NCBI GenBank assembly: GCA_964490075.1
Contig: CAZBBK010000018.1
Span: 1 to 64,000, forward strand
Length of the DNA: 64,000 bases
Source of the DNA: an uncultured Gemmatimonadota bacterium
GTDB taxonomy: Bacteria; GCA-2686955
Direction of reading: 5' to 3'
In this document: piece by piece, positions 16,306 to 21,004 of the stretch
Position numbering within the stretch: the first letter of the stretch is position 1
Layout: every line of letters begins with the position of its first letter
Position numbers and translations under genes: made by a program
The notes under the pieces: model-generated
What the model was told of the DNA's origin: nothing
The model's input: only the letters and a program-made list of their open reading frames with translations
Databases searched by the model: none

Positions 16306-17510
16306 GGCCGCAACGCCTCGCCACGTTCCATCGCCGCCAGGTACTCCTCGCGCCGCCCCAGACGCTCGAGCAGCAGCCCCTTGCCGAAATGCACGCTGCC
16401 CTGCGCCGGGTTGGCGGCGATCGCCCGGTCCCAGCAGCCCAGCGCCTCGTCGACCCGCCCGGCCCGCTCCAGCAGGTGCGAGAGCCGAAACCAGCCGTCC
16501 ACCCGCGTCGAATCGACCGCGATCGCGGCGCGCAGCTCCGACTCCACGAGTCCCCAATCCCCACGCCGCCGGTGGATCGTCGCCAGTCCCAGGTGGGCGA
16601 GCGGGTCGTTTCCATCCTCGCGCGCCGCCTGCGCCAGCGCCCGCCGCGCCTCCTCCAGGCGCCCCAGCGCCAGCAGTGCCTCGCCCCAGCGCCGCACCGG
16701 CAGCGCGTCGCCCCGCCCCGGACAGCGCACCGCTCGCTCCCAGACCTTCGCCGCCAGGTCGCCGCGCCGGGCCTCTTCGGCGACCGTCGCCTTCCACCAG
16801 AGCAGGGAATCGGCGCAGGCCCCGAACACCCCAATCGCCCGATCGAGCGCCGCGAGCGCCGCGTCGAAGCGTCGCTGGCGGCGTTGAATGCGCACGATCT
16901 GCACGTGGTACTCGCGCTCCCGCGGGCGCGCCGCGGCCGCCTCTTCGAGCAGCGCCAGGGCCTCGTCGAAGCGGTGCTTCGAGGCGTAGATCTCCGCCAG
17001 CTGGTAGTGGACGCTCATGTCCCCCGCCGGCAGCAGCGCCCGCCCTCGCTCGAAGGTCTGAATCGCCCGCCCCAGCTCCCCCAGCGCGTGCTGGTTGCGC
17101 GCCACCCCCAGATGGCCCTCGGGCCGCTCCGGCGCGGAATCGACCACCTCTCGGTAGCGCTCCAGCGCCTGCTCGGCGCGCCCCGCCGTCTCCAGGATCC
17201 CGGCCGCCGCCAGACCGATCTCGACGTTGCCCGGATGCCGCCCCGCGGCCTCGTCCAGCACCTCCAGCGCCTGGGCCGCGCGCTCCTCCCGCACCAGCAG
17301 CCGCGCCAGGCGCAGCGGGAAGCGTGGGTCGCCGGGCAGATCCTCCATGCCCTGTCGCCACAGCCGCTCGGCCGCCTCCACATCGCCTCCACCCTCGGCC
17401 TGCTCGGCCGCCACGAAGGCCCGCTCGGCCGCCGGATTCGCGGGCTCCGCCGCCCCGATCCCGCACAGCAGAATCGCCAGACAAGAGACCACCCGCGCGC
17501 GCTCGATCAT
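16302..17510 (-). CDS. Secreted TPR-repeat protein
   Basis: Signal peptide MIERARVVSCLAILLCGIGA followed by tandem TPR motifs. Confidence 0.8.
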   Translation of the reverse strand: MIERARVVSCLAILLCGIGAAEPANPAAERAFVAAEQAEGGGDVEAAERLWRQGMEDLPGDPRFPLRLARLLVREERAAQALEVLDEAAGRHPGNVEIGLAAAGILETAGRAEQALERYREVVDSAPERPEGHLGVARNQHALGELGRAIQTFERGRALLPAGDMSVHYQLAEIYASKHRFDEALALLEEAAAARPREREYHVQIVRIQRRQRRFDAALAALDRAIGVFGACADSLLWWKATVAEEARRGDLAAKVWERAVRCPGRGDALPVRRWGEALLALGRLEEARRALAQAAREDGNDPLAHLGLATIHRRRGDWGLVESELRAAIAVDSTRVDGWFRLSHLLERAGRVDEALGCWDRAIAANPAQGSVHFGKGLLLERLGRREEYLAAMERGEALRP

Positions 17511-17569
17511 CGGCCAACTCTGTCTGGCGGCATCGCCGCTGTCAATGGTCTCGGTGGGGCATCCTGCGT

Positions 17570-17730
17570 TTCGATAGAGCGCTTCTCCACGCGGAAAGCA
17601 CCCGGAACGCCCCCCATCGAGCCCCTGCCCATGCCCGATTCGGGCAGCGAAGTCGGGCAGAGGCGCGGGCAAGGGCAGGTTCTGTCACACACCGGCCGCT
17701 CCCTGCGCAGAGGCTCGCCAGATCGAAACC
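17570..17730. repeat. Imperfect palindromic intergenic repeat (REP/MITE-like) with TGCCC-rich core
   Basis: 17570-17607 matches the reverse complement of 19847-19884 at 32/38 nt. The central hairpin TGCCCGATTCGGGCA (17632-17646) also occurs inverted at 18753-18767. Confidence 0.7.
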
Positions 17731-17775
17731 TCAGGGGCCCCCTCCGACCCTCCCCACGACGCTATCCTTCCATGC

Positions 17776-18072
17776 ATGAGGCCCCTGACCACCGATCTGC
17801 GCCGCACCGACGCGCGCCCCTACTTCCTCTGGGACGAAGACGTCTCGGTGGCGGAGCTGCGCGCCTGCCTGCGGGGCGGCGACCGATGGGAGAAGGACCG
17901 GCTCCTTGGGAAGATGCTGCGCGAAGCGCGCGACACCGATGTGTGGCTCTTCGTCACCCCAGAAGAGGTCGCGCGGGCACTGCCCCGGCTGCGCAGGCGT
18001 CTGGGGCGTCGATGGGCTTTCTGGAAGTTCCTGATCGAGGGCTGGCGAGAGCATGGGATCATCGAAGAGTAG
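17776..18072 (+). CDS. Small protein, putative antitoxin partner of the downstream nucleotidyltransferase
   Basis: 98 aa with a RPYFLWD motif; overlaps an AbiEii-like gene, a typical two-gene TA layout. Confidence 0.65.
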   Translation: MRPLTTDLRRTDARPYFLWDEDVSVAELRACLRGGDRWEKDRLLGKMLREARDTDVWLFVTPEEVARALPRLRRRLGRRWAFWKFLIEGWREHGIIEE

Positions 18073-18706
18073 CCGGCTGTCCGAGTTCCAGACGCAGGTG
18101 TTGCGGGCCTTCTTCGCGCGCGAGCGGGGCTTCTTCCTGACCGGCGGCGCCGCGCTCGCCGGCTTCCACCTGAAGCACCGGACGACGACCGATCTCGATC
18201 TCTTCACGCTCGATGCGGAGGCGTTCTCTCGCGGCCGTCGCGTGCTGGAAGATGTCGCCGACGAGCTCGCGGCCAGCACTGAGATCACCCGCACCGCCCC
18301 CGGCTTCCAGCGCTTCGTTCTGGAACGGGGCGGCGACGCGGTGGTGCTCGACCTGGTTCGGGAGCGGGTCGCTCAGGCTTGCGCGGAGAAGCTCGAGCGC
18401 GACGGCATCGTGGTCGATCCCGCGCCGGAGATCGTGGCGAACAAGCTCGCCGCGCTGGCCGGCCGCGCCGAGGAGCGCGACCTGGTCGATCTGCTCATCC
18501 TGGAACGCGCGGGCCATCGCATCGAGGACTCGCTGGTCCACGCCCAGGCGAAGGACGGCGGCTGCACTCCGGCCACACTCGCATGGCTCCTCTCGGAGAT
18601 CGAGGTCCCCGAAGGTGCCCAGCTCCCCGCGGAGGTCGCCCCGGCCGAGCTGCGCTCGTTCATCGCCGACCTCATCCGCCGCCTCCTTCTCGCCGCGGCT
18701 CCCTGA
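18053..18706 (+). CDS. AbiEii/AbiGii-family nucleotidyltransferase toxin
   Basis: FFLTGGAAL..FHLKHR.T.DLDLF and NKL.AL.GR.E.RDLVDL motifs. Confidence 0.85.
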   Translation: MGSSKSSRLSEFQTQVLRAFFARERGFFLTGGAALAGFHLKHRTTTDLDLFTLDAEAFSRGRRVLEDVADELAASTEITRTAPGFQRFVLERGGDAVVLDLVRERVAQACAEKLERDGIVVDPAPEIVANKLAALAGRAEERDLVDLLILERAGHRIEDSLVHAQAKDGGCTPATLAWLLSEIEVPEGAQLPAEVAPAELRSFIADLIRRLLLAAAP

Positions 18707-18949
18707 TCGCCCAGGTCCCGGCGCCGCGCTCCCCATCCGCACGCGAATCCGTTGCCCGAATCGGGCAGGGGCTCCCCACCATTAGGCAACGAAAGACCCC
18801 GGGGCTGTGACTCCGAACGCCACTTGAGGTCGGCGAAGAGATGACTCCCCGGGTTTGCGCCCAGATGTGCCGTGGATCCGGTCGATCGGTGCCCCGACAC
18901 AAAGCCCAGCTCCGCGCCCGGAGCCGCGGTTCATGACGCCTTTTCGCGA

Positions 18950-19092
18950 CACAACTCGCCACTCTCGATCGAGAGTGCGGAGTTACGACCGTATACCCGT
19001 CACAACTCGTCACTCATCGCGATGAAACCGGAGCCACGACCGTATTCGCGCCGTAACTCCCGACTCTCGATCGAGAGTTGGGAGTTGTGACC
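18950..19092. repeat. Three degenerate 51-bp tandem units, each centred on a palindrome
   Basis: ACTCTCGATCGAGAGT at 18961 and 19063, variant ACTCATCGCGATGAAA at 19012; exact 51-nt period. Confidence 0.85.
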
Positions 19093-19110
19093 AAAATCTT
19101 GCCGAGACCT

Positions 19111-19582
19111 TCAGCTCCTCGATCGGAGGTGACAGGCGCGGCGCATGACCACCGCGCGCCGCTTCCCGCTGGCGCGGGGCACCGGGCTCACCCCGGCCAG
19201 GGAACGCAGGGCGTGGTAGTCTCGAGCCTTGATGGCTGATGAGGCCTCGGAGAGCAGCGTGGCGAGAACGATCCGCCCGACTCCCGGCAAGGAACGTAGG
19301 ATCTCAACGTCGCGCTGTTCGCATTGCTCCCCGGGAATCGACTCCTCGCCATCGCTTTCCGGAGTCTGTGCATCGCACAGCGCGTCGACCCGTTGGTGAC
19401 ACCGCCGGATCTGGCGGTTCACCACGCGAAGCCGCTCCACGAGTAGCTCCACATGGGCGACCGCCGCTTCTGAGGACAACGCCCTCTCCAGGCAGCTCGC
19501 ACGAGGGATCGATCGCACAAACCTGATGCTAAGGCGTCGCCCAATCCACTCCTACGAACACCCATACGCTCGCCTCTTCCAT
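19111..19582 (-). pseudogene. IS110 recombinase/transposase pseudogene
   Basis: N-terminus VFVGVDWATP*HQVCAID has an in-frame TAG. After a frame change and large deletion comes LRSLPGVGRIVLATLLSE..AGVSPVPRASGK..RRAC (Transposase_20-like); the C-terminus is missing. Confidence 0.9.
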
Positions 19583-19609
19583 AACCAACCCCTTGCTACA
19601 ACGGATAGA

Positions 19610-19805
19610 CAAGGCCGCCGCGATGGTCGGGGCACCCCTGTACCGGCGCTCGAAGCGCGGACTCCCCACTGGACCTTCATCGCGACGAACCCGCCGGGGC
19701 ACATCTCCCTGCCAGGCGCTCGAAGCGCCGGGCAATGAAGGTGGCTCCCGGCGGATCGGGCTGGCCTGACCGGATTATCCCTGATCAGGGGCGCCAGCTA
19801 GGTTG
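19610..19805 (-). ncRNA. Candidate IS110 bridge RNA (5' hairpin plus target-binding and donor-binding loops)
   Basis: Non-coding region upstream of the recombinase. Hairpin CCCTGATCAGGG (19779-90); two stem/internal-loop/hairpin modules sharing GCGCTTCGAGCGC; loop sequences match the element junctions. Confidence 0.75.
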
Positions 19806-19981
19806 GGAGCAACGCTACAGGGCAGGGCACGGGCACGATTGAAGACTTCCGGGCGCTCTCCGCGCAGAGAGGCGCCCTATCGAATCCCCTGACCGCTCCC
19901 CAGCCGGCGGCTGCGCGCAATCTGCTAATCTCCGCGGTTTCCGCCGATCGCCCCCCGACCACTCGACCGCCCGGAACCCGC

Positions 19982-20959
19982 ATGACCTACGCCCTCGCCC
20001 TCGACTCCCGATCGATCGCGCTGGATCTGCACCGCCTCTTGGAGGAAACCGACCCGAGCCGCTGGCGGGCCGAACTGGCCGTCGCCTTTCGCGCCCGGCT
20101 CGAGGAGGTGGAGGAACGGGTCGCGGCGCTGCTGGAGCGGTCCGAGAGCCACCCGCATTCGGAGCTGGCCGGGCGGCTCAGCGAACTGCTCGAGGTGTTG
20201 CGCGCGCACACGCCGATGCTGCCGACCGGTATTCACGTGGCCGAGCTGGGCGCCGACTGGATGGCCTTTCGCTCGCGCCTGCTCGACGCCTACGAGGGCC
20301 TCTCCTTCGATCTAGAGCCCTGGTCGATCCACGTTCCGAGCCTGCGCCCGACCAACTACGCGCGCAATCTCTATCATCTGGCCAACGGGATCACGGCGCT
20401 GGTCTTCATCGAGCTGGTGCTGCCGCCCACGGGCCTGATCGTGGTGGCGGCTCTGCTGGCGGCTCTGGCCTGGACACTGGAGCTGGGGCGGCGCCGGAGC
20501 CGGCCACTGCAGCGGGTGTTGATGACGCTCTTCGGGCGAGTCATCCACCCCCACGAGCGGCTGCGCGTCAACTCCGCCACCTGGTACGCCACCGCGCTTC
20601 TGGTGCTGGCGCTGTCGAGCCCTCCGGCGGTCTGCGCGGTGGCGGTTTCGATCCTCGCCCTGGCCGATCCCGCGGCGGCGATCGTCGGGCGGCGCTGGGG
20701 TCGTATCAGGCTGATCAACGGGCGATCGCTCGAAGGGAGCGCCACCTTCTTTGCGGTCGGATCGCTGGCGGCGTTGGCGGTGCTGTCGGTGTTCCACGGG
20801 GAGCTCGGCGTGGAAACGGCCCTTCTGGTCGCCGCCGCCGCGTCGGCCCCGGCCACCGTCGCCGAACTGGTGAGCAAGCGGATCGACGACAACCTGACGA
20901 TTCCGCTCTCGGCCGCCGCCGGGGCGACGCTGGCGTTGAGCCTGTTCGGGAGGATCTGA
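19982..20959 (+). CDS. Diacylglycerol/polyprenol (phytol/dolichol) kinase-family membrane protein with helical N-terminal extension
   Basis: ARNLYH, HPHE...NSATWY, LALADPAAAIVGRRWG, RSLEGS, DDNLTIP. Confidence 0.85.
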   Translation: MTYALALDSRSIALDLHRLLEETDPSRWRAELAVAFRARLEEVEERVAALLERSESHPHSELAGRLSELLEVLRAHTPMLPTGIHVAELGADWMAFRSRLLDAYEGLSFDLEPWSIHVPSLRPTNYARNLYHLANGITALVFIELVLPPTGLIVVAALLAALAWTLELGRRRSRPLQRVLMTLFGRVIHPHERLRVNSATWYATALLVLALSSPPAVCAVAVSILALADPAAAIVGRRWGRIRLINGRSLEGSATFFAVGSLAALAVLSVFHGELGVETALLVAAAASAPATVAELVSKRIDDNLTIPLSAAAGATLALSLFGRI

Positions 20960-20984
20960 GTCCCGGCGGCGGCACAGGCACGGG

Positions 20985-21004
20985 ATTCCGGCTTTCGCCG
21001 GAAT
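20985..21004. repeat. REP-like palindrome ATTCCGGC-TTTC-GCCGGAAT
   Basis: Perfect 8-bp stem with a GAAA/TTTC loop in an intergenic region; minus strand reads GTCATTCCGGCGAAAGCCGGAATCC. Confidence 0.55.

Follow-up and report, generated by a model that had tools for sequence, protein, structure and literature searches.

The question raised by this locus is whether the DNA around a broken recombinase gene is the remainder of an RNA-guided mobile element and, if it is, whether that element could still be at work. The locus lies in a window of 64,000 nucleotides (contig CAZBBK010000018.1, positions 1 to 64,000 of the forward strand, assembly GCA_964490075.1) from an uncultured Gemmatimonadota bacterium. 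The stretch 19820-18771 on the minus strand of this window is, with high probability, a fossil copy of an insertion sequence (IS) of the IS110 group in which the bridge RNA module is intact. The window copy is that of contig C18 of genome G000; other copies in this genome are named by their contig.

The protein remnant places the element in its family. The recombinase fragment (19126-19476, minus strand) was matched by PF02371 (Transposase_20, the C-terminal Tnp domain) with 40 bits against a cut-off of 21.3 (E 5e-10) and by the NCBIfam profile NF033542, 'IS110 family RNA-guided transposase', over positions 178-271 of 343; the latter match (E 1e-13) stays below the cut-off because the gene is truncated. 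Both results bear out the proposal of an earlier, sequence-only reading of the window that a non-autonomous IS110 element is located here. Using tblastn with a relative of 417 amino acids (aa), the fragment was found to correspond to residues 233-346 of that protein (62% identity, E 2.5e-38), with the serine of the SGK motif kept. It is preceded by an N-terminal remnant, MEEASVWVFVGVDWATP*HQVCAIDPSCELPGEGVV (19474-19582, minus strand), which was compared by eye with relative P0016, a protein that carries the NCBI name 'IS110 family transposase', and with the A1 consensus. About 35 N-terminal residues of the DEDD (RuvC-like) domain are left, including GVDWAT with the first Asp, and these are interrupted by an in-frame TAG (19531-19529). 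Residue ~35 is joined out of frame to residue ~231, and residues ~36-230 and ~347-417 are missing. The DEDD domain profile PF01548 gave no match in the window, a loss that fits a dead rather than an intact IS110 member. The stop, the deletion of about 195 codons and the 3' truncation leave the earlier statement that the recombinase is destroyed standing.

The two ends are those of the IS110 group. The left end (19583-19820, minus strand) is non-coding, bears the RNA, is 238 nt long and begins with CTGTAGCG, the right donor half-site, which reads CTGTACC in sister copies and relatives. The right end (18771-18829, minus strand) is short, about 59 nt of it being native, and ends in the left donor half-site GTGGGGAGC (18779-18771). 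According to the report on IS621 (PMC11208160), a long left end with the guide RNA and a short right end are characteristic of the IS110 group, the arrangement being reversed in the IS1111 group. A CC dinucleotide stands outside both junctions (19822-19821 and 18770-18769), there are no terminal inverted repeats, and insertion is site-specific. The left flank (19821-19835, minus strand) is the left target half-site, which ends in the CC core (19822-19821) and is part of an xTGCCC array resembling repetitive extragenic palindromes (REP-like). On the other side (18735-18770, minus strand) the CC core (18770-18769) is followed by the right target half-site CTGCCCGA (18768-18761) and the remainder of the REP-like palindrome.

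The evidence that the left end encodes a bridge RNA comes from other genomes. A covariance model (R1) was built from the left ends of 45 non-identical intact 417-aa relatives, with zero sequences from the window genome, a check that the sequence-only reading had itself put forward. This model found 19757-19615 at full length (model positions 1-141 of 141; 113.1 bits, E 6.5e-18), a 143-nt core on the minus strand that consists of two stem-loops with internal loops. Loop 1, the target-binding loop (TBL), occupies 19754-19691 and loop 2, the donor-binding loop (DBL), 19684-19619, both on the minus strand; the loop strings picked out in the earlier reading are indeed found at these coordinates. 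RNAalifold analysis of the 45 relatives yielded a family structure with 33 pairs, 20 of which change on both sides, compared to 6-9 when the partners were slid. Paired cells in the alignment amounted to 97.0% versus 29-48% with slid partners, and none of 500 shuffles reached any of the observed pairing measures. The family thus has two covariation-supported stem-loops with internal loops. In the window copy, the fold of the TBL hairpin has a z-score of -5.85, equalled by 0 of 200 shuffles, and that of the whole left end a z-score of -2.74. As R1, built from relatives alone, finds 19757-19615, the two hairpins exceed what is expected by chance.

Within the window copy the guides agree, the left target guide only in part, with the element's own ends and flanks. 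On the 5' side of the donor loop, the left donor guide GTGGGGAGTCC (19669-19659, minus strand) agrees with the right end in 10 of 11 positions, as had been claimed, and on the 3' side the right donor guide CGGTACAGGG (19645-19636, minus strand) agrees with the left end in 9 of 10; the earlier reading had noted only the TACAGGG/CCCTGTA part of the latter match, 7 of 7. The pattern GTGGGGAGNCC occurs exactly twice in the window, both times on the minus strand, namely in the right end (18779-18769) and on the 5' side of loop 2 (19669-19659); shuffled sequences contain it 0.23 times on average, and 3 of 100 reach two occurrences. Similarly, there are exactly two occurrences of CCCTGTASCG: one is in the left end (19822-19813, minus strand), and the other is obtained when the 3' side of loop 2 (19645-19636) is reverse-complemented; the shuffle mean is 0.15, with 0 of 100 shuffles reaching two. 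In the target loop, the right guide GGCAGGG (19713-19707, minus strand; followed by the handshake positions AG, 19706-19705) is, as had been seen before, the reverse complement of the right flank CCCTGCC (18770-18764), which amounts to 7 of 7 with CC + CTGCC. For the left target guide CATTGCCC (19737-19730, minus strand) only a partial match to the left flank had been claimed. This is correct: in the register usual among relatives only the CC core matches, and with the C at 19820 taken as part of the target the match becomes 6 of 8 plus one possible U-G pair.

Intact relatives were used to assess whether these matches follow a rule. With the surviving fragment, 822 longer relatives were obtained at E<=1e-3, and most of the 120 top-ranking ones are proteins of ~417 aa with both PF01548 and PF02371 and 58-68% identity. 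Eighty loci with such genes were examined, mostly from alphaproteobacterial metagenome-assembled genomes (MAGs) and isolates, and the upstream regions of 78 of them match the two-loop region of the window (blastn, ~66-81% identity). The common architecture consists of a left end CC/CTGTACC (the slash marks the junction), a first loop that varies, a second loop that is conserved (GTGGGGAGT(C)C ... GTACAGGG) and a right end ...cattgGTGGGGAGT/CC. The intact 417-aa relatives (loci L032-L111), from Alphaproteobacteria, Myxococcales and other MAGs and isolates, are 60-68% identical over the surviving fragment and share with the window copy the left start, the right end and the two-loop RNA. When the 3' side of loop 1 was reverse-complemented and set against CC and the five right-flank bases that follow it, one representative being taken per guide class (12 classes), agreement was seen at 58 of 60 non-core positions, a count attained by 0 of 10,000 shuffled pairings. 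The left target guide agrees with the left flank at 94 of 161 positions (shuffled mean 58.1, maximum 84; 0 of 10,000 as high), and the left donor guide 8-mer is identical to the right end in 5 of 9 distinct pairs and has one mismatch in the other 4. This covariation of guides and sites is the pairing scheme of IS621, which makes loop 1 target-binding and loop 2 donor-binding with CC as the core. The order of the loops and the core that had been proposed are therefore supported by the relatives and by R1. The relatives have ends of the window's type and loops that covary with their sites, the opposite of what the sequence-only reading had named as counterevidence.

That the hairpins might be ordinary GC-rich palindromes, with end matches that arose by chance, is a view suggested by the composition of the genome, which is very GC-rich and full of palindromic repeats, and by the weakness of seven-base matches taken alone. 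It has next to no chance of being right, since it is refuted by the full-length match of a model made from other genomes together with the guide/site covariation in the family; moreover, the strings of 10-11 nt are confined in the window to an end and its guide.

Among the relatives, two MAGs that belong to one sample series (L039-L050, L060) contain closely related copies with differing target guides inside one genome. Examples are CCCCAACC with GGGGCGG and ACCCACCC with GGGGAGG, and each right flank fits its own right guide. Judged from these sequences, the pattern is one of natural reprogramming of the target loop. A DNA search with the left end in 40 other genomes, three of the same family and the others distant, gave no match. 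Metagenome contigs scanned for the exact left-end pattern of a sister gave a single hit, which was rejected: the rest of that contig is unlike the element and P0016 (no blastn or tblastn match) and appears by eye to be a UvrA-like coding region.

The target guides of relatives mostly aim at runs of C or other sites, whereas those of the copies in the window genome are directed at xTGCC-CTGCCCGA in the REP-like array. The flanks of the window copy form a REP-like palindrome, (xTGCCC)n GATTCGGGCAACGGAGTCGGGCA (GGGCAx)n, of which uninterrupted copies are present on C3 (169610), C17 (59082), C32 (63151), C75 (95), C88 (7083) and elsewhere. The genome contains 137 arms of the form TGCCCGAYTC, 17 of which are preceded by TGCCCC, the predicted empty site. 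Ten right ends were found, with the palindrome following in either orientation, and 8 of these continue with CC+CTGCC; the flank of 16 of the 17 accepted left ends ends in (x)xGCC. An 18th match to the left-end pattern, on C71, was dropped as both its flank and its body are unlike those of the element. The palindrome, with a variable number of xTGCCC units, lies at 19821-19889 and 18735-18768 and is the insertion target of the IS. Preference for REP sequences is usual among IS110 elements according to PMC11208160 and PMC12288879. In front of the palindrome a conserved module of ~65 nt (TTTCGATAGGGCGC...GAAAGCGCCCGGAAC...) is present at 14 listed places, including the window. At one site only in the assembly (C130 ~2370, minus strand), a target repeat without other interruption bears at the insertion position just CTGTAC, with which the left end begins (ATGCC-CTGTAC-CGATTC); this may be the footprint of a lost copy.

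The window copy is one of about 17 decayed copies in the genome (17 accepted left-end starts). In the whole genome R1 has only three matches: C14 with 128 bits, the window with 113 bits and C5 with 74.5 bits, the last with a cut donor loop. Complete bridge RNA genes are thus left in two copies only, those of the window and C14. The donor guide of C14, GTGAGGAGTCC, matches the right end GTGAGGAGT+CC at 11 of 11 positions, a right end that is present in 6 of the 10 of the genome. Only in the window copy do right end and donor guide both read GTGGGGAG, with G as the fourth base; GTGAGGAG, with A at this place, is present in the remaining 9 right ends as well as in the C14 and C5 donor guides. As far as these copies can tell, the GTGGGGAG/GTGAGGAG switch is a compensatory pair within one genome. 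Over 143 nt the RNAs of C18 and C14 have 11 differences, 10 of them at unpaired positions and several in guides (Fisher p about 0.01), the classes of the 11 positions having been assigned from the family structure, by eye against the R1 structure line. The minimum-energy fold pairs the guides with each other and is unsuited to this test. The lone stem difference is a change from C-G to U-G.

Such a distribution, stems kept and loops diverged between the two complete copies, would also be expected if the bridge RNA remnant had been co-opted by the host as a regulatory small RNA unconnected with transposition. Constraint in living elements is expected to leave the same pattern; complete copies number 2 of 17, six copies have lost half of each loop, and no promoter-like site was found between 18650 and 19950. 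Co-option by the host is accordingly regarded as highly improbable, and the fossil copy with an intact bridge RNA module is retained.

Several findings weigh against this reading. The DBL hairpin alone folds no better than shuffled sequences (z -1.28, 22 of 200). A search of Rfam with 17500-21000 at E<=10 returned no family, only microRNA and CRISPR noise, and the sequencing runs listed as containing the stretch are four DNA runs of one marine-metagenome study, with no RNA run among them. The 10-versus-1 distribution of differences between C18 and C14 is a sign of constraint in the past and not of function at present. Many contigs stop within a copy of the element, and an intact copy could be unassembled. 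Finally, the left target guide fits the left flank only when shifted by one base relative to most relatives.

Owing to this last point, the exact left boundary is either 19820 or 19819. The shifted register also fits the sister copies and relatives L037, L053 and L054. It is favoured because the predicted xTGC-CC-CTGCCCGA is matched by 17 uninterrupted arms in the genome (TGCCCC/TGCCCGAYTC) and the other form (TGCCC/TGCCCGAYTC) by none; because, as we read it, perfect CTGCCC periodicity is restored for the complete C11 copy; and because the extra G of GTACAGGG then becomes the donor-loop handshake base facing the final C of the left target, the position of G166 in IS621 (PMC11208158). In either register the core is CC.

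Whether the element is still alive is a separate matter. The last base of its right end is C instead of the T found in its own guide, in 7 of the genome's 10 right ends and in the relatives, and in its left end a G stands in place of the C of the guide and of most sisters. The earlier claim that ends and RNA are kept stands in so far as both ends and a complete two-loop RNA are present; each end has one mismatch to its own guide. After strand exchange, the handshake bases pair with non-cognate DNA (PMC11208158). In the window copy the bases after the right target guide are AG, facing GC, whereas AC faces GT in C14, C5 and the relatives, and pairing with the non-cognate DNA would fail at both positions. 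Of the features of an IS110-group element with a bridge RNA, only the intact recombinase and the fitting handshake are lacking, as expected of a dead member. A scan of 18650-19950 for sigma-70 promoters revealed no promoter-like site in the integrated locus. The right end contains a -35-like TTGCCT (18789-18784), which together with a -10-like TAGCGT of the left end would make a promoter only in a circular form, by analogy with the junction promoters described in PMC11208160 and PMC12288879.

An intact enzyme was sought in the assembly, a 136-contig draft that is 95% complete, with the PF01548 and PF02371 profiles and with tblastn using the 417-aa relative, and none was found; the intact sister element hoped for in the sequence-only reading did not turn up. 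PF01548 gave two weak partial matches under the cut-off and PF02371 the window copy only. The 12 fragments found by tblastn were all incomplete, the longest being the window copy. Likewise, the circle-junction string (right end-CC-left end) had 0 matches in the assembly. When contigs were compared with the locus, both junctions were bridged by error-free contigs; a contig that joins the right end to the left end, or one that skips the element, was not among them or the others. Skips of 70 nt and 109 nt derive from sister copies. Two further joints were set aside: 18161>19989 has a mere 21 letters on one of its sides and misfits the element's ends, and 19883>18828 misfits the circle junction.

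Because the assembly is a draft and several contigs end inside copies, an unassembled intact copy is possible, and the window copy might belong to a working system in which an intact recombinase, unassembled or on another replicon, mobilises it in trans, is programmed by its RNA, or both. The element has kept both ends and the whole two-loop RNA, assembly breaks occur at many copies, the bridge RNA and a 22-bp donor of IS621 act in trans (PMC11208160), and one internal deletion junction common to six sisters at unrelated loci indicates that mobilisation in trans probably did occur in this genome. On the other hand, nothing but fragments of the recombinase was found in the assembly, contigs that end inside copies (C8, C24, C60) already bear the N-terminal deletion, and the deletion junction of the window copy near 19473 is unique to it, sister copies running on upstream at that point. 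The mismatched ends, the AG handshake and the missing promoter-like site count against it as well, and a working system is considered improbable. The unique junction, the end mismatches, the handshake and the absence of a promoter-like site from the scanned region are the reasons why the window copy is called a fossil, and the earlier suggestion that it can still be moved in trans or act as a source of guide RNA is not supported. In a 2026 preprint (10.64898/2026.08.14.744561), no activity is reported for elements with truncated recombinases.

The history of the sisters is different. In six left ends (C8:124360, C11:30984, C13:13759, C17:10471, C24:70678 and C60:38100) 70 nt are missing between the identical 14-nt apical hairpins GCGCTTCGAGCGCC of the two loops, by which the 5' half of loop 1 is fused to the 3' half of loop 2. 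The chimeric loop unites the left target guide with the right donor guide, a pair that corresponds to the left junction of the element itself. The idea of a stable hairpin formed by it was rejected (z -0.28, 71 of 200 shuffles as good), and since the fused RNA has no fold stability, the fusion is probably decay. A second deletion, with the junction ATGGAAGAG.CGAATGTG/TCGCGG and a loss of ~120 codons of the catalytic domain, is common to C8, C13, C14, C17, C24 and C60. The flanks of these six copies have no mutual similarity 150-600 nt upstream, which indicates that a recombinase-less derivative reached at least six loci. The resemblance to MITEs (miniature transposable elements with inverted repeats) is therefore seen in the sister lineage, whose junction is shared by six loci, and not in the window copy with its unique junction. 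Judged from the junctions, it is probable that the recombinase-less sister derivatives were once spread in trans; the shared junction could alternatively be due to gene conversion. Five of the six copies with the N-terminal deletion also have the 70-nt fusion, so they would have needed bridge RNA in trans too. C11 has the fusion without the N-terminal deletion, from which it follows that the fusion has either had more than one origin or been passed from copy to copy.

A more elaborate arrangement would be that an unassembled intact recombinase is served by the two complete RNA genes, those of the window and C14 with their differing guides, as stand-alone guides that mobilise the ends-only and fused forms. 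If true, this would be a natural division of labour among guide-only, ends-only and enzyme-only IS110 parts. It is held to be decidedly improbable, and decayed copies of a formerly active element remain the preferred account.

IS621 and the IS110 group (PMC11208160, PMC11208158) have the RNA in the left end upstream of the recombinase gene, a target loop followed by a donor loop, a 3' side of the loop that is complementary to the core and the right half-site, a 2-nt core, a REP-like target and no terminal inverted repeats, all like the window element. The handshake logic of IS621 also holds in the 417-aa relatives: in the right target guide, the core bases are followed by an A opposite the terminal T of the right end, and the right donor guide is followed by a G opposite a C at the end of the left target. 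Compared with IS621 as described there, the core is CC instead of CT, the guide sequences are other ones and the recombinase of the subfamily has 417 aa; in the window copy the recombinase is destroyed, the handshake no longer fits and there is no Rfam match. A second comparison is offered by ISPpu9/MITEPpu9 of Pseudomonas putida (PMC12288879), an IS110-family element in REP sequences of which recombinase-less, MITE-like forms are thought to be moved in trans. Its small module (ssr9/MITEPpu9) separates the recombinase gene from the right end in some copies and is found by itself elsewhere, and the same holds for a 240-bp repeat of the window genome. Unlike for ISPpu9, there is no autonomous copy in the assembly, the derivatives are internal deletions that keep the left end, some with the bridge RNA, in place of a distinct small-RNA module, and the evidence is confined to sequence. 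Recombinase-less IS110 derivatives in REP sequences, trans-acting bridge RNA and minimal donors are thus already known from PMC12288879 and PMC11208160. No description of fused-loop derivatives was found in a literature search that had supplements and ISfinder outside its scope; the subfamily may already be tabulated in the supplements of the bridge RNA papers.

The rest of the element consists of other repeats. A 5'-cut copy of an abundant, partly palindromic repeat of ~240-285 bp occupies 18887-19128 (minus strand), with a terminator-like hairpin at its end (18926-18907). Inside this repeat there is an imperfect palindrome; its terminator-like hairpin is conserved, with CTTTGTGT after it, and Rfam gave no match to it. 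Copies are located at C1:326-563, C21:19919-20160, C93:152-393 and upwards of 20 further sites in the genome; in several IS copies it separates the recombinase gene from the right end, and elsewhere it is solitary too. Next to it is a copy of a 64-bp repeat (18828-18891, minus strand), present at ~15 other places in the genome, e.g. C3:71587-71768 and C9:21852-22028, sometimes in close inverted pairs. The element is flanked by a gene for an AbiEii-like nucleotidyltransferase of a type IV toxin-antitoxin family (18053-18706, plus strand; E 6e-11), preceded by a small open reading frame (17776-18072) without a Pfam match, and on the other side by an open reading frame of 325 aa (19982-20959), also without a Pfam match.

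Taken together, a plausible life history can be outlined. In the living element the left end would have been transcribed into the bridge RNA, as homology with IS621 and the intact 417-aa relatives suggests. The TBL would have paired with a REP-like site of the form ~xTGC-CC-CTGCC and the DBL with the joined ends of a circular element, GTGGGGAGT-CC-(C)TGTACCG, whereupon the DEDD/serine recombinase would have exchanged strands at the CC core. In this way the element may have entered the arm of a palindrome without having terminal inverted repeats. Later the recombinase gene was destroyed; other repeats are now inside the element, and the 143-nt bridge RNA module is still complete. The sisters without a recombinase were probably spread earlier by a recombinase acting in trans, together with bridge RNA in the case of the fused-loop forms, as their shared deletion junctions suggest. 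The window copy itself is probably inert at present.

These findings leave what is known of the mechanism unchanged. A CC-core subfamily is added in which guides, flanks and ends covary cleanly in nature, including the handshake positions and one compensatory change within a genome. The repeated derivatives provide evidence, at the level of sequence, that recombinase-less IS110 derivatives have multiplied in one genome, which fits the experimental observation that bridge RNA and minimal donors function in trans. The window copy also shows that a bridge RNA gene can survive the loss of its recombinase and be recognised with a covariance model all the same; relics of this kind might otherwise enter annotations as small RNAs or hairpins without an explanation.

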